Below, one piece after another: positions 7,319-25,827 of a stretch of DNA of 25,827 nt. Made by a program: the position numbers and the translations under genes. Below the pieces are notes generated by a model, which saw only the letters and a list, made by a program, of their open reading frames with translations, ran no database searches and was not told the DNA's origin. The DNA comes from a virus: the IMG/VR virus record IMGVR_UViG_3300045988_153208; one strand, 5' to 3'. The first letter of the stretch is position 1, and every line of letters begins with the position of its first letter.

Positions 7319-7340
7319 GTTTTCAATCTCCTTTTACTCA

Positions 7341-8755: not shown

Positions 8756-8783
8756 GACTTCATTAGAAATATCTGTATGATAT

Positions 8784-9371: not shown

Positions 9372-9392
9372 GATACGCCTCCTATTTATTTA

Positions 9393-9980: not shown

Positions 9981-10001
9981 TTTATTATCTCCTTTTTCTC
10001 T

Positions 10002-10040
10002 AAAAAAAATAAGGGGAGAGGGAGTAAATCCCTTCTCCCC
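10002..10040 (-). terminator. Hairpin GGGGAGAGGGA-GTAAA-TCCCTTCTCCCC plus U-run on the minus strand, immediately downstream of the putative capsid gene.
   Basis: Inverted repeat 10013-10040 with A-run 10002-10009 on plus. Sequence-similar to the 4838-4866 hairpin. Confidence 0.55.
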
Positions 10041-10065
10041 TTAAACAATAGTTATATTAAGGTTT

Positions 10066-11175
10066 TAATCAAATAGTACCACTCTTACGGCCATCATAGG
10101 TAACAACCTTACCAGTAATGCCATCATAATTCCAAGTATACATTTGACCCATTAAGGAAGTGTCAACATAAGAGCAAATGTTGTTAGCCAACATACAACC
10201 AACGCCGACCTTCTTATAAACCTGAATCTCACGAGAACGATCGTAATTGCTGAATTCATCAACAATAGTTCCACCCTCGAAAGCAATCTTTACAGGCTTG
10301 CCATCAACACCAGTAGGAATAATCCAAGCATAACCAGGATCAATAACCTTACGAGTATTACTTTCATCTTCGAAGCCCTACTCTAAAATAACAACCTTGG
10401 TTCCCTTATAGGTAGCCAAACGGCCAGTATTCCACAGCTCAGTCTTCATAGCTTCAGTATAACGCCAAGCTTCATTAGGAATCATACGAACAGCAAATTC
10501 ATAAGTACAATAAATAGTAGGAGTACCATAAGCAGAAGCAATGGTAATCAAACGATCCATAGCACCCTCATCAAAACCTGCTGCAGCAACGCGGTTAGCA
10601 GGAGGTAGCTGATTGATAGAAGACTTCAAAGCCAAAGCAACTTCCTTATAAATCAGTTCATCCATACCATCCATAATAATCTTGGTAACTTCAGCAAAAT
10701 CAACACGACCATCTAAGAACTCTTCGAAGCCGATTTGAGCAGCTCCGCCGATAGCAGAGGTACGGACCTCAAAGCTCTCGCTCTCAGCAGGTCCCAGCTT
10801 GAAGACTTCATAGATACCAGCCAGTCCAACACGAGTCACAAACTGCTTAGCACGTGCGCGTGTATTTAGAGGACGACGGAAAATGGGCTTATCACCCTGA
10901 GCAAACTGCTTAACTTCAGCAAACTGCTCATAAGACTGAGAAACCTTCTTAGGAAGAACTTCATCCAAAGTCTCCTCAATCATTGAGAAAATTAGATTTT
11001 TATTTTCACGATATAGAGCATTGGTACCAGCCAGCTCGTTCATCTCATTACGTAAAGTATCGTTCAGAGCCTCATAAGAAAGGTTCTGACCATTATAACT
11101 GTAAGCCACAGGAGAAGAAGGATCAGCCTTAGCAACAGTCTTCATTAAAGCAACTAAATTGTTTCTATCTAACAT
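10066..11175 (-). CDS. Putative major capsid protein, 370 aa. One in-frame TAG at 10378-10380.
   Basis: ORF-track 10378..11175 continues in frame through TAG to TAA at 10066-10068 (315 nt in frame). ATG at 11173-11175 with AAAGGAGAG. Position scaffold-decoration-capsid as in lambda/SPP1. Followed by a strong hairpin. Confidence 0.5.
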
Positions 11176-11192
11176 TATTCTTCTCTCCTTTC

Positions 11193-12128
11193 TTACGCAA
11201 TACGTAGAATCTTAGCGCCACGTTGTCCATCAGGCATAGTATATACCTTAACAACCTGCCACTTCATATCCTGACTCTCATCTTTTACAAGAATTCCGTC
11301 AGCAGCTGCTGGAGCTAAAATATCACCAACAGAAACACTATCTTCATTAATCATATTAGTAGTATAATGATCACCAACATTAGTCTTGAAGACACGAGGA
11401 ACCATTGCAGTGCCTGGAGTCATACGCTTCTCATGATAAACACCAAGCTTCTTATATGGATCATTAGTCCAAGTCAGCTCTTCGTAAATGTCAGCAACAT
11501 CAGTTAGAACCTTATCATAAGCATACTTTACAGGCACAGGAGTCTTAGTCTGATTGGTCTTAGGATCAATCTCATACTCTACACCATTATAAGTAAACTT
11601 ATTGTCCTTAACATCATAAACTTCGCCAGCGATGGTAACAGTCTTTAGACCCTGATCTAAAGCAACAGTGTGCTCAAGCACCTTGTGATCAGCACCAGTT
11701 TCATCAACACCATTCCAGAAACGTCCACCATATTCAACCTCGGTATGCTCCCAATCGTATGGAGAATAAATACGAGCCTGATAGTCGTCCTTTAGCATAG
11801 CAAATTCGCAATCCCACTGCTTAGTTCCATCAGGATGATCGCGATATAACTTAATCTCATTATAAACTAGCATCCACTCGCCCTTGCCAGTAAAATTCAC
11901 TTCACCAATACCATTGGCATTAGCAGCGTAATCATACTTGACAAACTGACCGTTTTCAAGAATATTAATACCCTTGTTAGCAGGCAACTGAGCATAAATT
12001 TGAGCGGTTCTTTGTGCAGACAGGTGATTTGGCTCAACCTGACCATAACCAAACTCAACATACTTAGCCTGTGACTTAGGTGGATTTTTACCAACGCCTA
12101 AACGAGAATTTAAAAAATCCTTAAACAT
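11193..12128 (-). CDS. Capsid-associated protein, 311 aa. Decoration-like by position between scaffold and capsid; could alternatively be the major capsid protein.
   Basis: Complete uninterrupted ORF. ATG at 12126-12128 with AAGGAGG. TAA at 11193-11195. Confidence 0.55.
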   Translation of the reverse strand: MFKDFLNSRLGVGKNPPKSQAKYVEFGYGQVEPNHLSAQRTAQIYAQLPANKGINILENGQFVKYDYAANANGIGEVNFTGKGEWMLVYNEIKLYRDHPDGTKQWDCEFAMLKDDYQARIYSPYDWEHTEVEYGGRFWNGVDETGADHKVLEHTVALDQGLKTVTIAGEVYDVKDNKFTYNGVEYEIDPKTNQTKTPVPVKYAYDKVLTDVADIYEELTWTNDPYKKLGVYHEKRMTPGTAMVPRVFKTNVGDHYTTNMINEDSVSVGDILAPAAADGILVKDESQDMKWQVVKVYTMPDGQRGAKILRIA

Positions 12129-12146
12129 TTAAGTATGTCCTCCTTA

Positions 12147-13736
12147 TTAGTTTTTATTGGCTGATTCTAGAACAGCCTTGACCCAAGCTGGCATTCCAGC
12201 ATCTCTGTCATCATCTAAATTGCTTAAATTATAGGTAGTTGGGCCTTTATCATTATTATCATCATCAAGGTTAAAATTAACCTTGTTGCGAACACAAATA
12301 ACAGAAAGTTTTGCTTCAATATCATCAACAGAATACTTATCAATGTTATCAATAACATCTTTCTTATCATCATCAGACAGCATATAGAATGATTGAATCA
12401 TAGCTTCTTTATCCTTGCGTTCAATACTATTTTTAAACTCAGTTAAAGAAGTATTAGTTTCACTTAGAGTTTTATTTTCAGCCTCTAATAAACTAAATTT
12501 ATTTTGTAATTCTTCATATTCTGCCTTTAAGCTAACATATTCTTCAATTTCATCCAAGGAATACTTTTTCTTTTTCTTTTTATCCTCATCATCTTCTGAA
12601 GGATCGTCATCTTCATTTTCTGACTTTTGACCATTATTTTTAGAAGAACCATCATCTTTTTTGTTCTCAGGGTCGCCAGAATTATTGCCCTTATCATCGT
12701 TTGCCTTTTTATTTTCTTCTTCTTCTTGCTTTTTCTTAAATTCGGCTTCATAAGCTTCAACCGCATCTAAAGCAAACTGAGGCTCTGCTGCTGGAGTATA
12801 AGATTTAGTTACTTCAATTAAACCTTCACCAGGAACAAGACCATCAGAATCACTCAAAGAAAAGTTTAAACGATAATATTTCATATCTCCGCGGTCTTGA
12901 AGAATAGCAAATTTTTGACTATTATCTTCAAAAACGCCATCAATACGATATTTAGAGCAATAATTGTTAGAGCCATCAGGGAAAGCCTTATTTACATATT
13001 CCCATAAAGCACTCCATAGAGAATCTCCGATTTCTACGGCATATCTATTAAACACTTTTGCTCCTCCTTCTTTTAATAATTCTTTTAGTTCGTTCATCAT
13101 TGAGTATAGTTCATTTTTAAAACTATCATCAAATGAAAGAGAAAACTTTGTAATAGAGGAGCCTTCGAAGCAAGGTTCACACTCTTCTCCTAAAATACAA
13201 AGTTTAGAAATAATTGCTTCATTAATAATGAAAAACTACGGCTTTCCATTATTATCTTTCGTCCAAGTTCCATCTAAAGTACCTTCATCGAGCTCCATAG
13301 AATGATTATTGCCTTGCTCAATGATGCGCTTACATTCTGGATATTGGCCGGTCCATAAATATCCTTCAGTCATAAGATATTCATGTTCATTAACGCCATC
13401 ATCTAAAAATTTCTAAAACCAAACCTTGGCACCTAAATCTACAAAACCATAAGGTTTAGTAGTGTCTTTCATTTCAAACTTTCCGTTTGAAATATCAATA
13501 ATTCTATTGTGTTCCTCAAAATCTCCATTAGATTCATTATAAAAGCCAACAATAGGACTGCCAGGGAGACTATTAGCCATCTCCCTCGCAGTTTCTTTAG
13601 AAATAATGCTTCGATTGCGATTTGGTTCATCCCCAACGTAGCAAACTTTAATTTGGCATTTAGAAATCAAAGGATTAATAGGAGTTACATTAATAAATTC
13701 ACAAGGCGTTTCAAGTTTAATACTTTGATGCTTCAT
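12147..13736 (-). CDS. Capsid scaffolding protein fused to an about 210-aa N-terminal domain (possibly prohead-protease-like), 529 aa. In-frame TAGs at 13413 and 13236.
   Basis: ORF-track 13413..13736 and 12147..13100 are in the same frame. Hand translation of 13101-13412 shows no TAA/TGA. ATG at 13734-13736 with AAGGAGG. C-terminal half is highly acidic with coiled-coil-like repeats (EYEELQNKFSLLEAENKTL) and a K-run, typical of scaffold proteins. TAA at 12147-12149. Confidence 0.5.
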
Positions 13737-13747
13737 GATTTACCTCC

Positions 13748-15409
13748 TTAATTCATTGACTCTTTATTTTTTATGGTTTTTTCACTTTTCTAATCATCAG
13801 CCTTTTCAGGTCGCCCAGACTATTTTGTTTCAGTAGTCTGTTTTGTAGTAGTCTATTGATTACTACTTCCTGAATTATTTTGTGTTTTATTCTAATTGTT
13901 TGAACCTTTATTACCCAAAACATCTTGACTACTCATAGTAGAAGACATTAATGGTGGGATCATAATTTCAGTTAATTTCAACACATCATTTTCAAATACC
14001 GCAGTATTTAAAATAAAACTCTAAGAGTGACCAAGAGCAATTTGAGGTAGCATCTTAGAATAACCAAGTTGCGTTTGTTCTTTATATAATTTTGACATTT
14101 CTTTATAATTATATTGTGTAGTTTCAAGCATATAAAATTTAAAACTATATTTCTTATTGTTCGCAACTTTCATCTTTACTATTCTATCAAAAAAAATGTT
14201 AAATTGCAACAACAAGTTTCTAACAGTTGATTCATCATTAAGGATAGACTTCTCTAATGATAAATTACCATCAGTATTAAATAGATTTTGAGAAATACCT
14301 AAATTATTATAAACAGTACGTTCAACTTTTGCTAAATCATCTGTAGTAGTTGTAGTATTTTTATCTGATAAATCAATAGATTGAACATCAGTAAATGTTG
14401 TTAAAACATCAACACCAATAGCTCTTGATAACATAGCAACAGCATTATTATGTATGTCACGAGATTCATCAATATCAAATATTAAATCGCCATTTTTATC
14501 CATTGGAAGTTTTTGAACAATAATTTTTAACAACTTCTACATTTGTTTTCTGCGGTCTAAATCTTGAGCAGCATCTAAATCCATAAGAGCAGGGATAGAA
14601 TTAATAAATGGTGGGACATCACTACCATTAAAATTAAATTTCACACTTAATTCTGGAGATAGTAAATACCAACTTCCACTATAATCTCCCTTAATATCAG
14701 GAAGTAATTTTCCTTTCTTATATAAAACATATCCGCGCTAAAATTCTTCGGGGAATAATTTTAATACGCGCATACGATAATTAGGATCTGGAAACTAATC
14801 AAAAAACCGCATGTCAAACTCAATCGCTGGCATACCAGCCACAAAATATCTAGAACGGCAATAACTAGCAGGTAATTCTTGTAGCATTAAACTATTTGCA
14901 GATTGCACTATATATCCATAATAACAACCATTTTTCATAATACTTTGAGCAATATCACCGCAGATTTTTTTAATATAAGTATTATCTAAATAATTTAATA
15001 ACTTTGAAAAATCTTTTAAAACTTTTTCATCTTTTACTGTATCATCTAAAATCTCTGGAGCGACATACCAATCATATCTATACAAATAAGCAAAATAATT
15101 ACATACTCGCTCATAAATGCCGCTTATATCATAAAATAAATTAGAAATTCTACGCATTTCAACAATATCACGATTTATCATAGCTCGTAATACATCATTT
15201 TTAGTGACCATGCGACATGGTCCACGACGATTAGGATATAGCCGAGCAAATGACCCTAAATCTAATACAGCATCATCTAATGTTTGAACCCCAACTTTTA
15301 TTTTACGATATTCTGTTGGATCAGCAGTTCGATAATCACTTGTTCCATTGCTGATATTAAATCCTTTGGAGTGGATGATTTCCTAACGTGATAATTCTTT
15401 AGTATCCAA
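13748..15409 (-). CDS. Portal protein, 553 aa, with a Q/T/N/S-rich C-terminal tail and multiple in-frame TAGs.
   Basis: Putative TTG start at 15407-15409, 7 nt after AAGGAGG. Same frame as ORF-track 14795..15211 and 14021..14533. Hand translation continues to TAA 13748-13750. Located between terL and scaffold. Sequence FYDISGIYERVCNYFAYLYRYDWYV is portal-like. Confidence 0.55.
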
Positions 15410-15421
15410 AATTCCACCTCC

Positions 15422-15778
15422 TTAATATCCAGCTAATTGCATTATATAATCATATGTAATAAGATTTTCATCTGTATAAGGAATCTCTATTAATTTAAAA
15501 TCATGTAAAGCACAAAAACGTCGTTTTTGATTATCATTATATTGTTGTTGATATAAACCTTTTTTACCACCAAATTTTGCGCTAGGCTCATAATGCTATT
15601 TACCCTAATATTCAATAATAAAATCAATTCTACCATCATCATCAAAAACGACAAAATCGAAACGTAAGGGTCTGCCACTTGGTGCCTTCAAATCTGGGAA
15701 AATATACTCCATCTTAAATGGTAATTCAGCTTGTCGCAAAATCTCTTCAATTTTAATTTCGCCTCTAGACGCTCTCAT
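15422..15778 (-). CDS. Small Vsr/DUF559-like (PD-(D/E)xK) endonuclease, 118 aa. Possible free-standing homing endonuclease between terL and portal. Two in-frame TAGs.
   Basis: ATG at 15776-15778 with GAGGAGG. Translation ...LRFDFVVFDDDGRIDFIIEY[TAG]GK[TAG]HYEP... carries a D..(I/V)E..G..H-type motif. TAA at 15422-15424 overlaps the portal RBS. Confidence 0.35.
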
Positions 15779-15788
15779 AATTACCTCC

Positions 15789-17522
15789 TCAATTCAAGAA
15801 ACACCAATCTTTAGCATTAAACTTTTTACGTTTCTTCTTTTTATCTTCTTCTAATTTTAAATAATATAGTCCATATTCAAAAGCAGAAAATTTATCTTTT
15901 CGGATACTTTTATTTGCTTGTTTCAGGATAATATTTACTCCTTCAGTTTCTTCACGCAAATTCATCATTTCTTCTTTTAATATGGAAGTTAATGTAAATG
16001 GTTTTAATTCTTCTGCCCTCTATTCTGGAGTCATAGTTTGACCTTTCTTTTTAGCAAGAAGTTTATTTTTTGCTACGCGCTCATCAATTAAAAATTTCAC
16101 TTTTCCAGAAGCAAGTTGTGATTTAGCAATCGCGTGAGCTTCTGTATTAAGTGGCGCATTAGCTTTTATAATATACATAGCATCTAATACTGTATTAGAT
16201 GTTTTATATTTTTTATAAAATAAATCATCGTCATTAACAACACCAAAATCAGGGAAAATTTCATTGGTTTCAGGATCAATCTACGTCTTAACCATGTAAT
16301 CAATTAAACCAATTCCTAAACCATTACCATCAATTACAATTCTATCAGCATTATATTTATAATATAATTTTTTTAATTTAATAGTTTGGTCTTCAAAATG
16401 TTCATCAGATAATGTATATATATTCACTAGACTTTTAATCGACCCACCTTGTGATTGTGGAGTTACTTTAAATACACAAATAACTGAATCGCATCCTTTA
16501 CGACCAACGTCGACAGCAAGTACATAAGATGCTAATTTTGAATTACGCCCGGATGCTTCATATTCAGGCTAATTTAATATTCTATTTCTATCAAATATTT
16601 CAGCATTAAAAAATGCATCTTCTACAGTGCCAGACCATTTACTTTCATATTCTCGATCAAATGAACTTTCATTGAACGTTCCGTCCATTTTTAGGTCTTT
16701 AATAAAATTCGCATCTAATAATTTCATTAAAACAGGAATACGATAAGTACCACCCATAATAATAGATTGCTAAGGTTTAACAATCTCCCAAACTAATAAT
16801 TGGATTAATTTATCATAGGGGAAAGTATTTTTATATCCAGCAGTAGTAATATAAATTTGAGATTTATTAAGAGTTTCATCAGGTTGAGTAGTACCATCCA
16901 TACACATACGAGAAATATTCATTGTAGGAATAATAACTTGTGATAGAATATCACCATCAACACCAACACACTCTTCAATTAAACCACCATGGCGACGTTT
17001 ACCACGAGAAGACTCTCTTGCAGCAATATTATCAAAATATGAACCATTTTTAAATACATATTTAACATAATCTTTACCTTCAAGAGTTTGACCACGGCGC
17101 CAATCTATTTCTTTCTAAAATGCAGGAATAAGAGTACAAATTTCTTGAACTTTTTCTTTTACAATTCCAGCCGCTTGTTCTTTACCTCCAGAAGTAATAA
17201 ATAATTTACATCTGGGATATAAAATCGCACGACACATTAAGACCATCATTGACAAAAAAGATTTTGAATAAGCACGAGGGAATACAGCATAAATATATTT
17301 ATGACGCATCGCAGCGCGCAAAAAGATTCTCTAATAAAAATAGAGTTTAAAATGTTGAGGGCCGCCATCAGGTCCTGCCATGAAGTCGATAAACATATCT
17401 GGGTATTCTCTCCAAAAGGCTATGTACTATCTTGCTTCTGGTATAATTGCACGAAGACGGTCCTCTGAAATTCCAATCTTTTTACGCTTCTAAGATAAAT
17501 CAAGTAAATCCTATAAAGCCAT
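15789..17522 (-). CDS. terL: Terminase large subunit, about 577 aa, with multiple in-frame TAGs.
   Basis: ATG at 17520-17522 (AAGGA RBS). Same frame as ORF-track 17115..17321 and 16569..16757. Contains a Walker-A-like motif (AVFPRAYSKS), an ..RHGGLIEE.. segment, and a C-terminal nuclease-like region. TGA at 15789-15791. Confidence 0.6.
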
Positions 17523-17523
17523 A

Positions 17524-18720
17524 TTATCCTTCTAAATTTCTTAAAGTCTGAGCATCTATTTCAGATTCTTCCTCAAGGAAATCATTATATTCAATTAAAT
17601 CTTCATCTTTAAGATGATCGATTTCCTCCATCGTTAAATCTTCTTCAATATCTTGGTCTTCTTCTTTATTTTCTTCTTCTTGCATTTTCTTAATAGCCCC
17701 TTCAATGAGATTACCTAGATTCATCTCTTCAGTGACTAATGTGTGTGTATAATTCTTTAAATCTTGTAAAGTTTCATCAACTTTATCTTTTGGACCTTCT
17801 GTATAATACCGAGGGATAAATCCTTCAGTCTCACACATGGCTACTAATTCTCCAATAGAATCAAATGCTTCTCCTGTATCTGCTTTGTTTTGAGCGGCGG
17901 TGAAATTACCTGATTTCATTAGACTATCATAAACCTTGCTCATCTTTTGGAAACCTTCGATATCACCAATATCGATCAACTAGTTTGCTTTTAAGGATGT
18001 CTTACAAATTAATTTTAATGTATCAATATGACCAGCGCCGCGGATATCATAAGAACTCATCATTTCTTCATAGAGTTGCTCTAGTTTAACCCATTCTTCG
18101 GGTTTATACGCTTTACCCCACTTCATACGAAGATATAAAATATCTTCTTCTGTTAAATCGAGGTCATCTGCTGGGTCATGTTCAATACCATTCTATTGAT
18201 CAAAATAATCATCACCATCTCTAAAACGTTCTGGTAATTCAGGAGTGTAAGGTTTTAATTCTTCTTCTGGAATAGCGACAGTAGATTTAGCAATAGCTGT
18301 TGCTATTTGCTGGGCATCATAACCTTGTCGTTTCATAGTTTGTTCTAATTTATTATTAGCCACTTCCTATAAAAACTCAGAATCTTTCCATCGATAATCT
18401 CTATATTGTTTAAGTTTCATTTTGGACAAATATCTACCTAAAATACTCATACCAGTTAATTTAGATTTATCTTGTCCATATTTTACCATCAATTTACTCC
18501 ACTCATCTGGAACATAAGGTACATCAATTTCTTGTAGAATCCACATATAAGTTTCTGGATTCCAATTATCTACAAGCATTGTAATACATTTTTTACATTG
18601 AGGGAGTTTTCCATCATTTGGATATTTTTCTAAATTATTAGATGTATAAAACTGGTCAGCGCCCATAGTTCTATTACATCGTTCGCAATAATATACTTTT
18701 TTATCATTATCTACAGTCAT
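17524..18720 (-). CDS. 398-aa protein with an N-terminal Cys4 zinc ribbon (CERC..x23..CKKC) and a very acidic C-terminus. Possible terminase small subunit or DNA-packaging partner. In-frame TAGs at 18367, 18193 and 17980.
   Basis: ORF-track 18367..18720 and 17524..17979 are in the same frame. Hand translation of 17980-18366 shows no TAA/TGA. TAA at 17524-17526 sits immediately before the terL ATG. Confidence 0.4.
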
Positions 18721-18756
18721 AATTTTCCTCCTTATATCTATCCAATAACAGGCATC

Positions 18757-19827
18757 TCAAAATTATAACTGTTTGCCCTTGTTTTTAGCATTACGGCATT
18801 TTTTACAAATACTATAATAACCATCTTTACTAGTTTTATTTTTGCTAAAATATTTATTATGTGCTAATTTAATTTGCCCACAGCGACTACATTTTTTATA
18901 TTTACCTTTTGCTTTATGTAAATAATAATCATATAGGTATTGGTCTTCAGCCGCAGAGGCGATTAATTTTGGAATTTTATTGCGCCATAAACTAGAAATA
19001 TATTCTAAACTATGAGTAATATTAAATTCCTCTTGAATTTTCTTTTGAATGTCTATATTCTATAATCCATCAATTTTATATTCAACTATTCTATCATATA
19101 AGGGATAATCTTTAAGAGCAATGGTACATAAATTATCGAAATCTTCCATAATATACCATAAATCTCTTTCAAAATCTCCCCAACTATCTTGCTTTAAACG
19201 AGAATAATTACATAAAATTGCAGAACATACTCTAGGGTCTAAGAGTGAAACGCCATCCGGAATTGGATAACCATCATCATCAAAAATGCAAGTCGTGTCC
19301 TCTAATGGAATAAAATTTCTTGAACGAGTAATTTTAGTCATAACAATTGGACGACGAACTGCATTTTTAATAACATACTAATCTTTACGCATTTCAATAA
19401 TAGCACGTTTAATTATAAATGCTTCGCGTCCTTCACTAACTCGTAATTTGGCTTCCCAAGTAGTAATGGCGTCTCTTAACTATTTTAAATGAGGTATTTC
19501 TTCTATATCTTTTTTAGTAATTGTAATCTTAGGCTAAAATATTGTATTTTTATTTTCAGTAATTAAATTATAAATTCCATCTTCGCCATTCTCAAATTGG
19601 GAAACAAGACCTTCAAAAGATGTTTCACGCTTATTAACTGTTGCCATACGATTATCAGTTAATAATTTACGCTCCTTTTTCTCTTGTTTCTCCATACAAA
19701 GAATGATATAGTCCCCTAATATTTCTAAATATCGAGGAGAGGGGTCTGGGGTTTCCTCTAATATTTTCTTGACTAATTCATTTCTTTCTTCTGGAGTTTG
19801 TAAGGAATAATCTAATTTTATCATCAT
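18757..19827 (-). CDS. 356-aa hypothetical protein with a C-terminal Cys4 zinc ribbon (CSRCGQ..x17..CKKC). First gene of the leftward operon. Four in-frame TAGs.
   Basis: ORF-track 19534..19827 and 19060..19341 are in the same frame, joined through TAGs at 19534, 19480 and 19378. TGA at 18757-18759. ATG at 19825-19827 with GGAGG. Confidence 0.45.
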
Positions 19828-19852
19828 TACCTCCAGATTTTTTTACGTCTTC

Positions 19853-19880
19853 ATTATACAAAAAATTTTTCCAGGTGTCA
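19853..19880 (-). promoter_or_regulatory. Leftward sigma70-type promoter (TTGACA-N16-TGtTATAAT) for the packaging/structural operon.
   Basis: The rc of 19875-19880 is TTGACA. The rc of 19853-19858 is TATAAT, with TG upstream. Confidence 0.4.
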
Positions 19881-19936
19881 AATTTTAATAAATGCATTTA
19901 AAAAATTTTTAAACGATACTATTAATTGGAAAAAAT

Positions 19937-21199: not shown

Positions 21200-21203
21200 T
21201 TTT

Positions 21204-21521
21204 ATGGAAGATGGAAAAAATTATTTTGATATTGTAATGCGAGAAGGCCAAGCAATAGTTCATAATGAAGGTTCTATTCATTAGGTTGATAGTTTAGGCC
21301 GTCTTGTTTTTCCTAAAAATTTAAGACAAAAATATGGTATTACTCCTGGTGACCGCATGGAATTTTATACTATTGAATATAATGGTGAAGTTTATGTTGG
21401 AGTGCGAGTGAGTAAACGATATGGTAGTAGAATAGAGTATTTACGCGCTAAAGAAGTATTAGATGATTTGGGAATTGAGATTCCTCAAAAACTAACTGAT
21501 GCTATTAATGGAGTAATGTAA
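21204..21521 (+). CDS. AbrB/MazE/SpoVT-family (swapped-hairpin) DNA-binding protein, 105 aa, with an in-frame TAG at codon 27 (21282-21284).
   Basis: GGAGGAG RBS. Hand translation MEDGKNYFDIVMREGQAIVHNEGSIH[TAG]VDSLGRLVFPKNLRQKYGITPGDRMEFY... carries the classic VDxLGRxVIPKexR..GI..GD motif. TAA at 21519-21521. Absent from the ORF track because of the TAG. Confidence 0.55.
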
Positions 21522-21522
21522 T

Positions 21523-21666
21523 ATGCCTAAGTATAAAAGTTTTGGAAATGCCCTCGCTGCTAAAATGCAGAAAAAGGCTAATTATTATGCTACTAAAGCA
21601 GTTCATCAAATTGTATGGGGTGAAAACCCTAAACGTGGTCGTCCTAAGAAGGAGAATAAGAAATGA
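21523..21666 (+). CDS. Small basic protein, 47 aa (..GRPKKENKK).
   Basis: ATG at 21523 with GGAG 9 nt upstream. Stop TGA overlaps the next ATG. Confidence 0.35.
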   Translation: MPKYKSFGNALAAKMQKKANYYATKAVHQIVWGENPKRGRPKKENKK

Positions 21667-21746: not shown

Positions 21747-21956
21747 TTCTTTTTACCGTTATCTGAATTGAAAAAAGTTTTGGTGAGAGTTTGTACCAGC
21801 CAAACAAAAAAATAAAAATCAAAAAAAATTTTTTCCCGAAACCCACCCCCCCGGTCGGTTTTTATCTGAGAAAAAATCTGAACACTATCGAGACCTTCTT
21901 GGGCTTGGCGCACGCGGAAAGGCTAGACCATCCCCAATACAGCCCCTCAACTCGCA

Positions 21957-21981
21957 GGACCGCGAATGGCTGTCGCGGTCC
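21957..21981. other. Perfect 9-bp stem-loop (GGACCGCGA-atggctg-TCGCGGTCC) with no U-tract, about 60 nt upstream of the tiny-peptide promoter.
   Basis: Inverted repeat read directly from the sequence. Confidence 0.5.
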
Positions 21982-22041
21982 TCATTCACAATAAATACAA
22001 ACTCCACAAAAAATCTCTCGCAAATTTGTGTATTCTGCCAA

Positions 22042-22070
22042 TAGACACGCATCCTGAAATCTGGTATAAT
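22042..22070 (+). promoter_or_regulatory. Promoter TAGACA-N17-TGgTATAAT driving the 31-aa peptide gene.
   Basis: TAGACA at 22042-22047, TATAAT at 22065-22070, with an extended -10 TG. Confidence 0.5.
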
Positions 22071-22095
22071 AGTATTATCAAAGGAGGAATGGTCT

Positions 22096-22191
22096 ATGTC
22101 TATCATCTACAAAGTCGTGCGCTTCATCACCGCGGTCGCTGTTGTCGCGGGCACTGGCATCCTGATGTGCCTCATCTGCCTCCCTCATTGA
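22096..22191 (+). CDS. 31-aa hydrophobic peptide (MSIIYKVVRFITAVAVVAGTGILMCLICLPH), its own transcription unit. Small membrane peptide, possibly type-I-toxin-like.
   Basis: AAAGGAGGAA RBS 8 nt before ATG 22096. TGA at 22189-22191 lies inside the terminator stem. Confidence 0.5.
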   Translation: MSIIYKVVRFITAVAVVAGTGILMCLICLPH

Positions 22192-22204
22192 GGGAGGTTT
22201 TTTG
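22179..22204 (+). terminator. Intrinsic terminator CCTCCCT-cattg-AGGGAGG plus T6.
   Basis: Perfect 7-bp GC-rich stem followed by TTTTTT. Confidence 0.7.
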
Positions 22205-22210
22205 TTGCCC

Positions 22211-22291
22211 TAAGATTGTTAAAAATTTAACGATGTAGCAAGATTGTTAAAAGATTAACAATGTAGCAAGATTGTGAAAGATTTAACAATC
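22211..22291. repeat. Three tandem about 28-bp repeats (tAGCAAGATTGTTAAAArtTTAACaATG), each containing the palindrome TTGTTAA-N4-TTAACAA.
   Basis: Copies at 22211-22235, 22236-22263 and 22264-22291, read directly. Confidence 0.8.
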
Positions 22292-22295
22292 ACTC

Positions 22296-22400
22296 AACCA
22301 AGAGAGGACAAGGACACGCACGGCACAGTGGACAAGGCAAAGCGAGCCAACGAGCGAGCGACCAACAGACAAAGAGAACAACAACACAACACAACACAAT
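22296..22400. other. About 100-nt tract almost devoid of T on the plus strand (A/C/G only; CA and CAA repeats, ACAACAACACAACACAACACAA).
   Basis: Direct reading; extreme strand composition skew. Confidence 0.8.
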
Positions 22401-22408
22401 GATAGATA

Positions 22409-22430
22409 CATTGTTAATGTATTAACAATG
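22409..22430. promoter_or_regulatory. Operator-like palindrome CATTGTTAAT-gt-ATTAACAATG (10-bp perfect arms) between the two skewed tracts.
   Basis: Direct reading. Confidence 0.6.
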
Positions 22431-22432
22431 TA

Positions 22433-22505
22433 GTATAGTAGTATGGTATGGTATGGTAGGGTATGGGGTGGGGTGGGCTATGGGTAGTGGGTAGGGAGAG
22501 AGAGT
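22433..22505. other. About 73-nt C-free G/T/A tract with TATGG/TAGGG repeats and a G-quadruplex-type motif (GGGGTGGGGTGGGCTATGGGTAGTGGGTAGGG).
   Basis: Direct reading; four or more GGG runs separated by 1-5 nt. Confidence 0.75.
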
Positions 22506-22726
22506 AGACCAACAATAAGAGATGCGGACGCGCTTCCCACCGGTCGGCTCACCGGGAACCGCGCACAACAAATCTAATGTAAGTATTCTATTTCTCTTTT
22601 GGGTTCATCATCGTTAACGGCCCTAATCGCCCAAGAATAAGCCCTCGCACAATTGCCAAACAACACAGCAGGGCAGGCGCTGAACCGCGCGTATCCCGCA
22701 ACACACAGCTCTCACAGAGGAGCGAG

Positions 22727-22753
22727 CAAGATTGTTAAAAGTTTAACAATGTG
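22727..22753. promoter_or_regulatory. Operator-like palindrome copy (CAAGATTGTTAAAAGTTTAACAATGTG).
   Basis: Matches the repeat consensus. Confidence 0.55.
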
Positions 22754-22840
22754 AGAGCCAAGAGCAAGAGAGTAAAGAGTGCGCTTGCACAGGTAGCAAG
22801 GAGGATACACACGGCACAGTTGATACATTCGCTGACCGAG

Positions 22841-22866
22841 CAAGATTGTTAAAAAATTCACAATGT
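22841..22866. promoter_or_regulatory. Operator-like palindrome copy (CAAGATTGTTAAAAAATTCACAATGT).
   Basis: Matches the repeat consensus. Confidence 0.5.
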
Positions 22867-22890
22867 GTGGATGTGGTGAAGTCGCTGTTT

Positions 22891-22911
22891 AATTGTTAAA
22901 AATTTCACATT
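22891..22911. promoter_or_regulatory. Degenerate operator-like copy (AATTGTTAAAAATTTCACATT).
   Basis: Partial match to the consensus. Confidence 0.4.
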
Positions 22912-22990
22912 CGCTGTTGGATGCCGAACACGGTCGCAACGCCCCAGACTTCACCACATTAAAGTGTTAAAGAAAAAAAATTGCAAATGC

Positions 22991-23012
22991 GATTGTTAAA
23001 ATAATCACAATC
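22991..23012. promoter_or_regulatory. Operator-like copy (GATTGTTAAAATAATCACAATC) about 40 nt upstream of the promoter at 23054.
   Basis: Matches the consensus. Confidence 0.5.
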
Positions 23013-23053
23013 TTCATCCCGAAAATAAATAGGTTATTTTTGAAAAAACCTCT

Positions 23054-23081
23054 TGACAAATTGCCCTATGTGTGCTACAAT
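23054..23081 (+). promoter_or_regulatory. Promoter TTGACA-N16-TGcTACAAT for the two-gene operon 23112-23550.
   Basis: TTGACA at 23054-23059 and TACAAT at 23076-23081. Confidence 0.55.
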
Positions 23082-23111
23082 GATTACAGTAAAACAAAGG
23101 AGGACGATACA

Positions 23112-23348
23112 ATGTCTAACATCTATGGAGTCTGCTACACCACGAAAGAGCCTGTTGTCTACAACAGAGGGACACAGTGGGAGAAAACCTGTTCCGATTT
23201 CCTGTTCGTTCAGGCAAACAAGGACAATGGCACAAAGCTGGTGGACAAGCTGAACGCTATGCTTGCCGCAGGTGTGGAAAAGTACGAACTGCTGGACATG
23301 ACCAAGATTGACCATTTCTATCTTGACAAGTCCGAGGAAATGTATTAA
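23112..23348 (+). CDS. Hypothetical small protein, 78 aa.
   Basis: AAAGGAGGAC RBS and ATG at 23112. No in-frame TAG. TAA stop. Confidence 0.6.
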   Translation: MSNIYGVCYTTKEPVVYNRGTQWEKTCSDFLFVQANKDNGTKLVDKLNAMLAAGVEKYELLDMTKIDHFYLDKSEEMY

Positions 23349-23361
23349 GGAGGAACTGACA

Positions 23362-23550
23362 ATGACACGCACTATCGCTAATACCTACATCTGTATCAAC
23401 AACGAGGGACAGATGCTCTCCATCATTGCCCGCACGGGCAACGAAGCCCATAACATCGCAATAGGGTTTTTGCGGAAAGCAAACATCGTGAGCGTTCGCC
23501 GTGTATTCAAGTCTGGCAAGCTGGGCAAGGAAATTCTGAAAATTAAATAA
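23362..23550 (+). CDS. Hypothetical small basic protein, 62 aa.
   Basis: TAAGGAGGAA RBS and ATG at 23362. TAA stop followed by the terminator. Confidence 0.6.
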   Translation: MTRTIANTYICINNEGQMLSIIARTGNEAHNIAIGFLRKANIVSVRRVFKSGKLGKEILKIK

Positions 23551-23554
23551 AATA

Positions 23555-23584
23555 AACAGGGCGCAAGCCCTGTTATTTTTTTTA
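23555..23584 (+). terminator. Intrinsic terminator AACAGGGC-GCAA-GCCCTGTT plus T9 (GNRA tetraloop).
   Basis: Direct reading. Confidence 0.75.
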
Positions 23585-23603
23585 TAAAATGCGAAAAAAA
23601 CTA

Positions 23604-23632
23604 TTGACAAATATAAATAAGCGTGTTATAAT
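23604..23632 (+). promoter_or_regulatory. Promoter repeat copy P1: cTATTGACAAATATAAATAAGCGTGTTATAAT (TTGACA-N17-TGtTATAAT).
   Basis: TTGACA at 23604-23609 and TATAAT at 23627-23632. About 90% identical to the copies at 24022 and 25281. Confidence 0.6.
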
Positions 23633-23664
23633 GAATACAGAAATTAAGAAATGAGGTACACAAA

Positions 23665-23853
23665 ATGAAGAACATCTATGAAATCGAGAACATCATCGAC
23701 GAAATCCCCGCTGATGATTGGGCTGGCATTTGTAATCTGATGGACTACTACTATCAGTCGAATTTCTCCGCTGACGCTGAACAGAGACTGGCAAGGGCAA
23801 TCGCTCCTTACGGCTTGACCGCAGAGGAAATCCTGACCTGGGACGCTGAATAA
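23665..23853 (+). CDS. Small acidic protein, 62 aa.
   Basis: RBS AAATGAGGTACACAAA and ATG at 23665. TAA at 23851-23853 lies in the terminator loop. Confidence 0.55.
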   Translation: MKNIYEIENIIDEIPADDWAGICNLMDYYYQSNFSADAEQRLARAIAPYGLTAEEILTWDAE

Positions 23854-23868
23854 GCGTCCTATTTTTTT
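23841..23868 (+). terminator. Terminator GGACGC-tgaataa-GCGTCC plus T7.
   Basis: Direct reading. Confidence 0.6.
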
Positions 23869-23876
23869 GCTGTTGG

Positions 23877-23896
23877 ATTGTTAAAATTTTAACGAG
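23877..23896. promoter_or_regulatory. Operator-like palindrome copy (ATTGTTAAAATTTTAACGAG) between the terminator and the antisense promoter.
   Basis: Matches the TTGTTAA-N4-TTAAC consensus. Confidence 0.5.
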
Positions 23897-23933
23897 CATC
23901 GTCGCGCTCATCAGGCACGTGGCGCCCCGAAAT

Positions 23934-23963
23934 ATTATACCACAACAGTCCACCAGTTGTCAA
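23934..23963 (-). promoter_or_regulatory. Minus-strand promoter (TTGACA-N18-TGgTATAAT) firing antisense toward the 3' end of gene 23665..23853.
   Basis: The rc of 23958-23963 is TTGACA. The rc of 23934-23942 is TGGTATAAT. Confidence 0.4.
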
Positions 23964-24021
23964 GAGAAAAATACGAAAATTTCGCACAAAATTTGCTATC
24001 CCGATTTGTATAGTTTGCCAA

Positions 24022-24050
24022 TAGACAAAATGAAATAAGCGTGTTATAAT
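24022..24050 (+). promoter_or_regulatory. Promoter repeat copy P2: TAGACAAAATGAAATAAGCGTGTTATAAT.
   Basis: TAGACA at 24022-24027, TATAAT at 24045-24050, with extended TG. Confidence 0.55.
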
Positions 24051-24083
24051 GAGTACAACAAAACAACAAAGGAGATACACACA

Positions 24084-24392
24084 ATGATTAACATTCGTTC
24101 TATCCGCAAGCTGGGCAACAATGACGGGCTGACCCTCAAAATGGGCAAAAAGGTAAACTATAAATCCGGCTGGCAAGTTGCCACAGAGGGCATCGAGTGC
24201 AAGACCGCACAGGAAGCCATTGACGCGGTGAGAGACTACGGCGGCAATTGTGGCGTGTGGTTCAGTGAGGGCGTGTATTACATCGACAAAAGCAAGCGCG
24301 TGGCGACAAAGCGTGAAGCTATGGAAATCGGCAAAGCGTGTAATCAAATTTCCGTGTTGAAATGGGCAACTATGACGCTTGCCTACTGCTAA
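24084..24392 (+). CDS. Hypothetical protein, 102 aa.
   Basis: AAAGGAGATACACACA ATG. TAA stop followed by the terminator. Confidence 0.6.
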   Translation: MINIRSIRKLGNNDGLTLKMGKKVNYKSGWQVATEGIECKTAQEAIDAVRDYGGNCGVWFSEGVYYIDKSKRVATKREAMEIGKACNQISVLKWATMTLAYC

Positions 24393-24396
24393 AATA

Positions 24397-24423
24397 ATAG
24401 GGCGAAAGCCCTATTTTTTTTTG
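24397..24423 (+). terminator. Terminator ATAGGGC-GAAA-GCCCTAT plus T9.
   Basis: Direct reading; GNRA loop. Confidence 0.75.
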
Positions 24424-24443
24424 AAAAAATTTCAAAAAAGGTA

Positions 24444-24472
24444 TTGACAAATCCCGAAATAGGTGCTATAAT
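24444..24472 (+). promoter_or_regulatory. Promoter TTGACA-N17-TGcTATAAT.
   Basis: TTGACA at 24444-24449 and TATAAT at 24467-24472. Confidence 0.55.
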
Positions 24473-24502
24473 TAAACCATCAAAAGAGAGGAGCTAAACG
24501 CT

Positions 24503-24694
24503 ATGACAAACTTTGAACAGTATCTCGAAAACCTGATGGGTATGAAGAAAGCGGAAATCATCAATGAGGGCATCACCTGGGGCATCTGGGCGAACACCGA
24601 GGGCAACAAAGCCGAGTTGATGAAATGGAAAAAAGTTCTGCTGGCGCGTTCCCTCGCCGATAGGCTGGAAAGACTGGAAAGGCGGGGCTACTAA
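24503..24694 (+). CDS. Hypothetical protein, 63 aa.
   Basis: AGAGAGGAG RBS and ATG at 24503. TAA stop. Confidence 0.6.
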   Translation: MTNFEQYLENLMGMKKAEIINEGITWGIWANTEGNKAELMKWKKVLLARSLADRLERLERRGY

Positions 24695-24695
24695 G

Positions 24696-24722
24696 ACAAG
24701 GGCGAAAGCCCTTGTTTTTTTT
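24696..24722 (+). terminator. Terminator ACAAGGGC-GAAA-GCCCTTGT plus T8.
   Basis: Direct reading. Confidence 0.75.
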
Positions 24723-24773
24723 ATATGGCATTATGCCCATAATTCGGTTGAAAATTTTGGTGATTTTGCCTAT

Positions 24774-24801
24774 TGACATTCTGCCCCATTTGTGTTATAC
24801 T
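24774..24801 (+). promoter_or_regulatory. Promoter TTGACA-N16-TGtTATACT with no ORF immediately downstream. It transcribes into the GC palindrome and toward the next cassette.
   Basis: TTGACA at 24774-24779 and TATACT at 24796-24801. Confidence 0.45.
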
Positions 24802-24804
24802 CGG

Positions 24805-24831
24805 TCGCGCGCCCACGGTCCTGGCGCGCGA
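24805..24831. promoter_or_regulatory. GC-rich palindrome TCGCGCGCC-cacggtcct-GGCGCGCGA lying between face-to-face promoters.
   Basis: Perfect 9-bp inverted repeat. Confidence 0.6.
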
Positions 24832-24839
24832 AATTTACC

Positions 24840-24868
24840 ATTATACCATGTCCCAGCAATTTTGTCAA
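24840..24868 (-). promoter_or_regulatory. Minus-strand promoter (TTGACA-N17-TGgTATAAT) facing the 24774 promoter and firing antisense toward gene 24503..24694.
   Basis: The rc of 24863-24868 is TTGACA. The rc of 24840-24848 is TGGTATAAT. Confidence 0.45.
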
Positions 24869-24926
24869 TAGGCAAATCAAACAAAAATCATACATTCCAA
24901 ATCCCGAAATTTGTGCATTTTAACTA

Positions 24927-24955
24927 TTGACATTCATACGCCCCTGTGCTATACT
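24927..24955 (+). promoter_or_regulatory. Promoter TTGACA-N17-TGcTATACT.
   Basis: TTGACA at 24927-24932 and TATACT at 24950-24955. Confidence 0.55.
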
Positions 24956-24984
24956 GTATACATAAAACAGAGGAGGTCATGAGT

Positions 24985-25257
24985 ATGACGCGTGAGTACA
25001 AGATTAGGTTCATCGACAGCGAGGCGCAGTATAGCGAGACTGCTACTGCTCAGTGGGACACCGACACCAGTATATGCGATTTCCTTGAAGAACAGCTGTA
25101 TATTCAGTGGGAACTGCGCCCTCTGGAAAGATACTGGCAGAGAGAGTTCTGCACCAAAGGCTGGACGCGGTTTATATATGGTCTATATGAGCAGTTCTCC
25201 GTGTCTTATGACTGGGACAACTCCAATATCATTACCGTTGAAAAAATCCGAAGCTAA
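24985..25257 (+). CDS. Hypothetical protein, about 90 aa (alternative start ATG 24979).
   Basis: AGAGGAGG at 24971-24976. The ORF track's longer N-terminus (from 24946) lacks an RBS. Confidence 0.55.
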   Translation: MTREYKIRFIDSEAQYSETATAQWDTDTSICDFLEEQLYIQWELRPLERYWQREFCTKGWTRFIYGLYEQFSVSYDWDNSNIITVEKIRS

Positions 25258-25270
25258 TTCGGATTTTTTC
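25245..25270 (+). terminator. Terminator TCCGAA-gctaa-TTCGGA plus T6, overlapping the stop codon.
   Basis: Direct reading. Confidence 0.6.
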
Positions 25271-25280
25271 ATTTTTTCTA

Positions 25281-25309
25281 TTGACAAATACAAATAAGCG
25301 TGTTATAAT
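25281..25309 (+). promoter_or_regulatory. Promoter repeat copy P3: TTGACAAATACAAATAAGCGTGTTATAAT.
   Basis: TTGACA at 25281-25286 and TATAAT at 25304-25309. Confidence 0.6.
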
Positions 25310-25338
25310 TGTATTATCAAATGAGGGAGGTATTCAAG

Positions 25339-25560
25339 ATGGAATACTCAGTAGTAGTCAATAATGTTGAGGTCGTGCGCGTGAGCGGTGATGAAGCCGC
25401 GTGGAACAAATTTGAAACGGCGTGTGAGCTGGTGCGGCTGATGCTGGCTGATGGCGGTTTTGGTGAAGCGTGGGCAGAACTCCGCGAGATGAACGGCGAG
25501 CCTATCGCCCGCTTTGATGAAAACGGTATGAGCGAGTGCGGCGCAGTCCGCGGAATGTGA
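25339..25560 (+). CDS. Small acidic protein, 73 aa.
   Basis: GAGGGAGG RBS and ATG at 25339. TGA stop overlaps the next RBS. Confidence 0.55.
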   Translation: MEYSVVVNNVEVVRVSGDEAAWNKFETACELVRLMLADGGFGEAWAELREMNGEPIARFDENGMSECGAVRGM

Positions 25561-25570
25561 GGTGCGACAA

Positions 25571-25768
25571 ATGGACGCTAAGGGATTTACATTTTGCGGC
25601 GGGGCTGATGAACGGGATGTTCTCCGCTACGGCGAGTATCTGACCGATGAACAGTATACCACGTGGGATAGCCACTATTACCGCCTGCGCGCTATCCGCT
25701 ACAATGGCAAGCTGTACTGGCACAAGATGGTGGACGGCGAACTGGTTGAATTTAAGGTTTTGAAATGA
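25571..25768 (+). CDS. Hypothetical protein, about 65 aa, translationally coupled to the upstream gene.
   Basis: GAGGTG 6 nt before ATG 25571. TGA at 25766-25768 lies inside the terminator. Confidence 0.5.
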   Translation: MDAKGFTFCGGADERDVLRYGEYLTDEQYTTWDSHYYRLRAIRYNGKLYWHKMVDGELVEFKVLK

Positions 25769-25793
25769 GCCAAATTTTGGCTCATTTTTTTTG
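25766..25793 (+). terminator. Terminator TGAGCCAAAA / TTTTGGCTCA plus T8.
   Basis: Direct reading. Confidence 0.7.
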
Positions 25794-25805
25794 TGCATTT
25801 TGACT

Positions 25806-25827
25806 ATTGACAAAATAAGCATTTTTA
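25806..25827 (+). promoter_or_regulatory. Start of another promoter-repeat copy (cTATTGACAAAATAAGC...), truncated by the window end.
   Basis: TTGACA at 25807-25812. Shares the ATTGACAAA..ATAAGC motif of P1-P3. Confidence 0.4.

Follow-up and report, generated by a model that had tools for sequence, protein, structure and literature searches.

What is the role of two strong bacterial promoters that face each other across a short GC-rich palindrome, with no open reading frame (ORF) between them? This arrangement occupies positions 24773-24868 of a 25,827-nt stretch of viral DNA (IMG/VR record IMGVR_UViG_3300045988_153208; hereafter, the window), where a sequence-only reading had proposed an interference or toggle module whose palindrome would act as an operator or as an RNA hairpin. 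Judged from the sequence and its relatives, the two near-perfect promoters and the hairpin between them are real features; they make up one copy of a cis-regulatory module that recurs in the early region, host-takeover-like in appearance, of an uncultured human-gut phage of ~200 kb.

The 24753-24891 segment reads TTTTGGTGATTTTGCCTA-TTGACA-TTCTGCCCCATTTGTGT-TATACT-CGG-TCGCGCGCC-CACGGTCCT-GGCGCGCGA-AATTTACC-ATTATA-CCATGTCCCAGCAATTT-TGTCAA-TAGGCAAATCAAACAAAA. A consensus scan recovered the facing pair as claimed: P1 on the plus strand (24773-24801, TTGACA-17-TATACT) matches at 11 of 12 hexamer positions and Pminus on the minus strand (24868-24840, TTGACA-17-TATAAT) at all 12, and both have a TG-extended -10 box (for P1, TG at 24793-24794). 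The perfect palindrome was located exactly where it had been placed (24805-24831), as a 9-bp stem formed by TCGCGCGCC (24805-24813) and GGCGCGCGA (24823-24831) around the 9-nt loop CACGGTCCT (24814-24822), with predicted folding energies of -17.0 and -17.6 kcal/mol on the two strands. The -10 boxes are 38 bp apart. Assuming that transcription starts ~7 nt past each -10 box, P1 would initiate at ~24807-24809, 2-4 nt within the left arm of the hairpin, and Pminus at ~24833-24835, 2-4 nt ahead of the hairpin base; the predicted starts are thus ~26-28 bp apart, in keeping with the ~30 nt first estimated. P1 is preceded by the upstream element AATTTTGGTGATTTTGCCTA (24753-24772, plus strand; repeat families D3 and D7 and position profile), which belongs to the TTTGTGCATTTTGnCTA motif found 5′ of the -35 box in most early promoters here. 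On the opposite side, GAAATTTACC (24830-24839; GGTAAATTTC on the minus strand) comprises the Pminus discriminator and the first bases predicted to be transcribed and is, according to the position profile, the best-conserved part of the module outside the hexamers.

The pair is not a product of chance, since the 21800-25827 region holds ten promoters matching at 11 or more of 12 positions, compared with a mean of 0.1 in 300 shuffles. Eight of them lie on the plus strand, one per small gene, and two on the minus strand (Pminus and a second at 23963-23934). Neither is the element an assembly artefact, because its sequence recurs in many independently assembled contigs. The claim that no ORF lies between the promoters held as well: ORFs crossing the element are mechanical and lack a Shine-Dalgarno sequence, and the one weighed as a coding candidate (24712-24930, 72 aa) has no ribosome-binding site (RBS) and loses its frame through a 1-nt indel (96 versus 97 nt) among orthologues. 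The hairpin was likewise rejected as an intrinsic terminator: the terminator scan made no call, the stem is followed by AAATTTACC on the plus and CCGAGTATA on the minus strand, neither being a U-tract, and face-to-face copies have a mean of ~3 T in the 9 nt after the stem in either direction. Searches with the covariance models of Rfam 15 gave no match in the window at the gathering score and none within 24750-24900 at E ≤ 1, and a search for tRNAs and tmRNA found nothing at the element.

Is the pair maintained by selection? The upstream 63-aa gene (24503-24694) has 78 homologues, and in most close relatives the same face-to-face pair lies 110 nt downstream of it. Counted over seven orthologous variants of the same length, none of 24 hexamer positions varies, compared with 12 of 34 spacer positions (Fisher p = 7e-4); one of 18 positions varies in the hairpin arms and one of nine in the loop, namely its central base. 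Four other orthologues have TAAAAT as the P1 -10 box, with one base added. In L012, L013 and L014, three loci from relatives, everything to the right of ATTATACCA has been replaced by recombination, yet a perfect TTGACA-17-TATAAT (12/12) is kept. Because the hexamers are invariant while the spacers vary, and because Pminus is retained despite a replaced flank, both promoters are evidently under purifying selection.

This bears on whether the element has a function of its own in the first place. It might be a by-product of the duplication or inversion of promoter units, or a selfish repeat akin to a miniature inverted-repeat transposable element (MITE) that carries promoters in its inverted ends and is tolerated by the phage. 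Such a view could draw on the outer arms, which resemble 24-nt terminal inverted repeats (I9), on the existence of a repeated family and on promoter subfamilies with conserved spacers, which point to frequent duplication. However, it is at odds with hexamers of both promoters that stay invariant while the spacers drift, with a covarying stem, with constrained distances to both -10 boxes and to P2 (the promoter of the downstream gene) and with the single orientation of all copies relative to genes. Neither precise empty sites nor target-site duplications turned up; presence and absence involve whole cassettes or module-to-module deletions. A MITE or Correia-like repeat was rejected, the inverted outer arms (I9) being simply the two promoter units. 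Altogether, we regard a lack of function as very unlikely.

The palindrome is best read as a base-paired hairpin and not as a sequence-specific operator, because its half-sites differ among copies: paralogues have at least seven different arm sequences (TCGCGCGCC/GGCGCGCGA, CCGGCCGC/GCGGCCGG, CGAGCGCC/GGCGCTCG, CCGACCGCG/CGCGGTCGG, CCGGGCGC/GCGCCCGG, CCGGCCGA/TCGGCCGG and GCCGGCCA/TGGCCGGC), and five of the nine stem pairs show double-sided changes. Across 27 aligned paralogues and orthologues, 94.7% of cells are paired, as against 78% in shuffles and 25-42% in controls with slid partners; the covariation score is 0.50 versus 0.20, to be read in the knowledge that the copies were selected as hairpins and that some are mutual recombinants. 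An apparent compensatory change in L014 was discarded, because this locus proved to combine two paralogous modules by recombination. Of the two roles originally suggested for the palindrome, the operator is thus hard to reconcile with the diversity of arms, while an RNA hairpin shared by both transcripts agrees with their covariation. A motif thought to recur here and in a hairpin near 21957, GGTCC/GGACC, did not hold up either. The central loop base is T, C, A or G among orthologues; at 21956-21982, GGACC/GGTCC is that hairpin's own stem, not a motif common with the 24805 loop, and reads GGGCC/GGCCC in L024. Among close relatives, the loop keeps the trinucleotide ACG, and only there is GAAATTYCC conserved after the stem; the loops of distant relatives are unrelated. 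The conserved property would accordingly be a stable GC stem, and the unconserved distant loops favour a generic structural role. Searching IMG/VR with the 14-base pattern AAATT-N0-2-CCATTATAC was uninformative, as the matches listed were chance matches.

The arrangement is also far from unique, and looking for it in related genomes, as had been advised, proved fruitful. When all retrieved loci were scanned for convergent promoter pairs around a GC-rich centre, up to four copies per 14 kb emerged; contig 120995 has at least five face-to-face copies, and the early regions of related human-gut phage contigs (~100-200 kb) each hold five or more pairs. A hairpin-centred census yielded 46 distinct GC hairpins with promoters on both sides and 24 with a promoter on one. 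The common layout consists of an upstream terminator, a T-run plus TTTGTGCATTTTGCCTA, P1, the hairpin, GAAATTYCC, Pminus, ~58 bp, TCCCGAAATTTGTGCA...TTGACA (P2), an RBS and a gene, and its orientation relative to genes is identical in all copies. In the window, these flanking parts are the intrinsic terminator of the 63-aa gene (24693-24718, plus strand; called by the terminator scan and kept in all relatives), a 58-bp divergent spacer between the -35 boxes of Pminus and P2 (24869-24926) that holds the upstream elements of both, AGGCAAATCAAACAAA and TCCCGAAATTTGTGCATTTTAACTA, then P2 itself (24927-24955, plus strand, TTGACA-17-TATACT by consensus scan) as the proximal promoter, and a 92-aa gene, MSMTREYKIRF... 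(24979-25257, plus strand), with the RBS GAGGAGG at 24970-24976. A further face-to-face module begins with TTGACAAAATAAGCATTTTTA... at 25808-25827 (plus strand), where the end of the window cuts inside its P1; it corresponds to the second module's P1 in relatives such as L007 (3138) and L010 (6289). A small imperfect hairpin (ATATGGCATTATGCCCATAAT, 24721-24742) that immediately follows the 63-aa gene's terminator is kept in all relatives, including three loci that have no face-to-face module (L018, L025 and L027).

Across copies, the hairpin measures 14-34 nt and the gap between the -10 boxes 30-47 nt. The stem nevertheless starts 2-6 nt past the P1 -10 box and mostly ends 7-8 nt before the Pminus -10 box, whatever the length of the hairpin. 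Because these distances stay constant, the stem appears to be kept at the predicted 5′ ends of both transcripts. The predicted start of Pminus lies a few nucleotides upstream of the stem base, and the Pminus RNA would therefore carry the complete hairpin. Of 41 modules scored, 33 have 58-59 bp between the -35 boxes of Pminus and P2, and three have 47/48, one helical turn less. Several cassettes of relatives (L010 7010-7031, L011 7122-7143 and L005 2870-2909) show another combination, in which a promoter -35 box lies in the loop of a GC hairpin, as in TGGGGC-TTGACAAC-AAGCCCCA and ATAGCAAATAGGGG...TTGACAA...CCCCTATTTGCTAT.

Could the module act as DNA? An extruded or exposed palindrome might be a start of replication (a transcription-activated origin, or a priming signal on both strands, could be envisaged), a hot spot where recombination would shuffle cassettes, or a topological barrier, for instance to gyrase. 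The covariation keeps pairing equally on both strands: G.T-type mismatches favour the plus strand in four variants and the minus strand in three, without preference. In close relatives, the loop keeps one orientation with respect to the DNA, no matter which promoter accompanies it. Neighbouring modules have recombined, with loss of the intervening cassettes and formation of hybrid modules (L012-L014 versus L010), three contig or window ends fall inside modules, and a copy without P1 adjoins an iteron-like palindrome that is also arrayed at 22212-23014. All of this would suit a DNA-level element. However, convergent transcription should put positive, not negative, supercoils between the promoters, which disfavours cruciform extrusion, and an origin would not be expected at least five times per genome with every copy linked to one particular downstream gene. 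Moreover, repeat recombination and assembly breaks are expected by-products of any repeat: contig 163304 of a relative (L006/L015) ends just past the hairpin at ...ATTATACCA, and this end and that of the window are probably assembly breaks at a repeat with a strain-variable right flank, not genome termini. We therefore deem a role at the DNA level quite improbable. Two related candidates were rejected. A protelomerase-type telomere site, suggested by a CGCGCG core recalling N15 telRL, does not agree with a centre that is a non-palindromic 9-nt loop and with arms that covary. Nor does an invertible segment between the 24-nt inverted repeats hold up: the repeats are simply the two promoter units, L012 and L013 have other sequence in place of the right-hand unit, and flipping the segment would regenerate the identical arrangement.

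Which gene does the module serve? Genes were grouped by their N-termini and their upstream sequences inspected. The face-to-face module is always found upstream of the families MATIAIL..., MTREYK... (to which the 92-aa gene of the window belongs), MTMNALA... and MSKREMV..., and the MINIRSI... family (the 24084 gene of the window) always has a version without P1, whereas most early genes never carry a module. Because it is linked to particular downstream genes while upstream neighbours vary, the module evidently is part of the downstream gene's control region, with P1 as the distal member of a tandem P1/P2 pair and the opposing promoter in between. P1 had been described as lacking an ORF before the promoter at 24927. 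There is indeed none between P1 and P2, but P1 is not orphaned, the module being tied to the downstream gene and the 24927 promoter lying at the conserved 58-59 bp from Pminus.

The face-to-face pair is one of three architectures. In the first, exemplified by the window copy at 24773-24868, P1 and Pminus converge on the hairpin. In the second, Pminus faces a hairpin or GC-rich leader without P1, and a U-tract hardly ever comes after these hairpins. The window has such a copy on the minus strand (23876-23963): its promoter Pminus′ (23963-23934, 12/12, 18-nt spacer) is directed at a stretch rich in GC and at a palindrome resembling an operator, GATTGTTAAAATTTTAAC (23876-23893, or to 23896 when counted as a copy of the arrayed palindrome). 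Pminus′ stands back to back with P2′ (24022-24050, plus strand), the promoter of a 102-aa gene, with 58 bp between the -35 boxes as in Pminus/P2. The palindrome GATTGTTAAAATTTTAACAATC replaces P1 in this copy and in L033 (5388) and also forms the 22212-23014 array; at the position homologous to 23934-23963/24022-24050, L032 and L033 instead have P1, a hairpin and a U-tract. In more distant phages, Pminus-type units run directly into a reversed terminator. The third architecture consists of P1 and the hairpin without a Pminus -10 box, a U-tract after the stem and then P2; examples are GCGCGCCG-AGTTTTTG (L033) and GGCGCCCGG-TTTTCGG (L172), that is, a promoter followed immediately by a terminator. 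All three share a strong promoter that points into a GC hairpin at a distance of a few nucleotides. Whether only one of the two promoters is conserved, a concern raised with the original proposal, thus has a divided answer: close orthologues keep both, and distant relatives also have units with P1 only or Pminus only.

In the window, Pminus points antisense at the 63-aa gene through its terminator, an orientation that had been noted correctly. It may accordingly give rise to a stable cis-antisense RNA that starts with the hairpin and ends in the upstream terminator read in reverse, comparable to lambda OOP, the B. subtilis type I antitoxin RNAs and IS10 RNA-OUT. By pairing with the upstream mRNA at its 3′ end, or with the P1 transcript at its 5′ end, such an RNA would lead to decay by RNase III. 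The predicted 145-nt minus-strand RNA is well structured (z = -2.75), and the reversed terminators met by the Pminus-only units of relatives would suit such a transcript. Yet the module tracks the downstream gene while upstream neighbours vary, and its overlap with the P1 transcript comprises the hairpin only, far from any RBS. The upstream terminators, moreover, are not enriched in the A-tract needed for reverse function, weakening the case for a discrete antisense RNA. On balance, we find this explanation quite unlikely.

Alternatively, the hairpin RNA might itself be the product, as an abundant, short, 5′-triphosphate and GC-clamped stem-loop that acts on a protein. Possible modes of action include antitermination through cassette terminators in the manner of nut/boxB or put, or service as a decoy that captures a host RNA-binding factor involved in defence or decay, including mimicry of the repeat of a CRISPR (clustered regularly interspaced short palindromic repeats) array. 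The hairpin is the sole constant of all three architectures, and in every one of them a strong promoter's transcript is predicted to have it at the 5′ end. The P1-only unit, with its promoter, hairpin and U-tract, would amount to a minimal gene for a ~35-40-nt RNA. The loop ACG and the GAAATTYCC past the stem are conserved in close relatives, and nearly every early gene has a terminator, so an antitermination device would have work to do. On the other hand, stems differ within one genome and distant loops are fully different, leaving no single sequence for a protein to recognize; this stem diversity also argues against mimicry of one CRISPR repeat. The plus- and minus-strand loops are complementary, not identical, and P1-only and Pminus-only units would hence give different RNAs. 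In addition, the window copy and most face-to-face copies lack a U-tract, so that no defined 3′ end is predicted, and no Rfam family matches. We consider the hairpin RNA as product unlikely, albeit with an appreciable chance of being right. A bolder version would posit an undescribed class of phage element, in which consensus promoters 3-8 nt from a covarying stem-loop mass-produce trans-acting 5′-triphosphate hairpin RNAs, from one or both strands, during host takeover. Such RNAs could make RNA polymerase ignore the early-cassette terminators or sequester an RNA-binding factor used by the host in defence or decay; this, too, seems unlikely to us.

The explanation that we favour, tentatively and at somewhat less than an even chance, is a protein-free module for transcriptional interference or insulation, in which the two promoters would be mutually exclusive and each transcript would bear a 5′ hairpin cap. 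P1 and Pminus are near-consensus sigma-A/sigma-70 promoters. Because an open complex covers the DNA to about +20 and the predicted starts are ~27 bp apart, two RNA polymerases should be unable to occupy both promoters, resulting in mutual exclusion or in 'sitting-duck' interference. Given this start-to-start geometry, mutual interference appears almost unavoidable. A polymerase escaping from either promoter would run over the opposing one, and the stem could pause it ~10-12 nt later, exactly over the opposing core promoter. Precedents exist: RNA polymerases bound to the face-to-face promoters of Ecl18kI clash front to front (PMC2760811), interference at pR/pL of phage 186 is ~6-fold and mainly due to the sitting-duck mechanism, and lambda PR/PRE offers a documented case in which pausing enhances the occlusion of a convergent promoter (PMC6593788).

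Both transcripts would begin with the shared stem-loop at their extreme 5′ end, and its role there is likely physical rather than sequence-specific. It could cap the RNAs against decay by RppH and RNase J-type enzymes: BsRppH depends on a minimum of two unpaired 5′ nucleotides, and a 5′-terminal stem-loop denies it these, thereby blocking the entry of RNase J1 (PMC3997798). Pminus would oppose transcription arriving from the upstream cassette and so insulate P2 and its gene, while P1 would confine the antisense transcript, a task that a bound protein or reversed terminator may assume in other versions of the module. Pminus is the best-conserved part of the module and occurs alone or with an operator-like palindrome in place of P1, and the terminator of the P1-only versions fits with P1 transcripts that are not meant to reach the gene.

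Several points weigh against interference or insulation. The start sites, the strength of the promoters in the real host and the clash of polymerases are all predictions. A P1 RNA starting 7 nt past the -10 box would lack the first 2-4 bases of the stem, so the hairpin fits Pminus better, and the P1-only variants, a promoter followed by a hairpin and a U-tract, fit a tiny hairpin RNA as the product equally well. The terminators upstream of modules are not specially bidirectional (mean A 3.7 versus 4.4, one-sided p = 0.95), and hence there is no sign of selection to stop Pminus transcripts upstream. Finally, it is puzzling that two consensus promoters should be spent on insulation when each cassette already has a terminator. 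As for the toggle originally proposed, the geometry stands, and both promoters are conserved and repeated; units with P1 only or Pminus only exist, however, so the module is not an obligatory toggle. A bistable toggle is possible.

How does the module compare with known systems? Like 186 pR/pL, P2 Pe/Pc and Ecl18kI Pm/Pr, it has convergent promoters that lie, at the level of sequence, close enough for mutual suppression; for pR/pL the spacing is 62 bp, as against ~27 bp here. In those systems, the genes driven by the two promoters oppose each other in role, with the balance set by a repressor or methyltransferase. Here, by contrast, there is no ORF for Pminus and none between P1 and P2, and the face-to-face copy has no evident regulator site. 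Both promoters are near consensus and share a covarying 5′ hairpin, in a unit repeated at least five times per genome. In IS10/Tn10 pIN-pOUT and ColE1 RNA I/RNA II, convergent transcripts overlap at their 5′ ends by a few tens of nucleotides, and the antisense RNA begins with a stable stem-loop. The geometry of the present element is like that of IS10 pIN/pOUT, with convergent promoters and transcripts predicted to overlap at their 5′ ends. However, whereas the IS10 overlap covers the RBS of the transposase, the predicted overlap here (24807-24834) comprises the hairpin only and lies ~150 nt upstream of the nearest start codon, and the RBS and start at 24970-24981 are served by P2, bypassing the overlap.

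As in Gram-positive 5′ stem-loop stabilizers (the aprE leader, ermC and SP82-type), a stable stem-loop is situated very near a predicted 5′ end; in contrast to these, one palindrome serves two opposite transcripts and the predicted P1 start falls inside the stem. The module resembles lambda PR/PRE, where a hairpin-dependent pause (tR1) parks RNA polymerase on a convergent promoter, except that there the promoters are 320 bp apart and the effect is one-way, while here the geometry would permit pausing in both directions. It also recalls lambda nut (boxA-boxB) and HK022 put in having a small stem-loop RNA just past early promoters in a terminator-rich region, but differs from them by lacking a family-wide conserved loop or boxA and a candidate N-like protein, and by convergent transcription predicted from both strands. 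The element is neither an intrinsic terminator nor a sequence-specific operator, an Rfam family or a MITE. What is new is a covarying hairpin as the shared 5′ end of two transcripts from convergent consensus promoters, along with a third promoter whose distance is fixed, the recurrence of the unit in front of selected early genes and its conservation in a recoded clade of gut phages.

The genome around the module falls into two parts. Positions 1-19827 hold structural genes on the minus strand (tape-measure, portal and virion-protein fragments) at a GC content of ~30%. In minus-strand frames of at least 150 codons (1-19900), the standard code yields 2432 codons versus 5300 with TAG as sense; the largest TAG-sense frames contain up to ten in-frame TAGs, and TGA as sense changes nothing. 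Matches to portal and tape-measure proteins are fragments under the standard code, and the late/structural genes thus appear to read TAG as a sense codon. From ~21800 onward, the GC content is ~44%, stops are ordinary and plus-strand cassettes follow each other, each made up of a consensus promoter, a strong RBS, an ORFan of 30-100 aa and a terminator, which gives this region the look of an early host-takeover region. The early proteins, including the 92-aa gene product, have no Pfam or PHROG match. Comparison of the window with 50,697 GenBank phages by megablast and blastn gave no match and hence no similar cultured phage; the relatives are human-gut contigs of 95-201 kb from IMG/VR and ENA. 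Three fragments were binned in Clostridia or Lachnospiraceae metagenome-assembled genomes, a weak hint at the host.

The early region harbours further non-coding features. The palindrome AAGATTGTTAAAANNTTTAACAATGTAGC forms an array of at least eight copies of 22-28 bp at 22212-23014, three of them in tandem (22212-22295), in a ~800-bp stretch without an ORF reaching 80 aa. Such an array resembles a set of iterons or a multiple operator for a DNA-binding protein. Two reading frames, both identified by eye, could supply a binder: an AbrB/SpoVT-like one (…LVFPKNLRQKYGITPGDRMEFYTIEYNGEVYVGVRV…) at 21200-21530 with an in-frame TAG, and a small basic ORF at 21525-21665 that ends in the AT-hook-like NPKRGRPKKENKK. 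Within the same stretch lie the longest T-free run of the window (70 nt, 22330-22399) and a C-free, G-rich run of 51 nt (GGTATGGGGTGGGGTGGGCTATGGGTAGTGGGTAGGG, 22427-22477) that could form a G-quadruplex. At the boundary between 30% and 44% GC, the hairpin at 21956-21982, with its 10-bp stem AGGACCGCGA-ATGGCTG-TCGCGGTCCT and no adjoining promoter, is kept in relatives and shows a compensatory change in L024 (AGGGCCGCGA...TCGCGGCCCT). A hammerhead-like CUGAUGA near 23910 on the minus strand was dismissed for want of Rfam support.

The known convergent-promoter switches are single, gene-specific and protein-controlled, whereas the element described here is a repeated, protein-free unit of ~100 bp, conserved across a clade of abundant, uncultured and stop-codon-recoded gut phages. 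It is short and self-contained, and it is readily testable in vitro and in Bacillus or Clostridium reporters. Should the hairpin RNA be the product, the module would represent a new kind of phage small RNA. If, on the other hand, interference is its purpose, it would constitute a compact natural insulator or interference part and open a view on how large phages of Firmicutes schedule their host-takeover genes.

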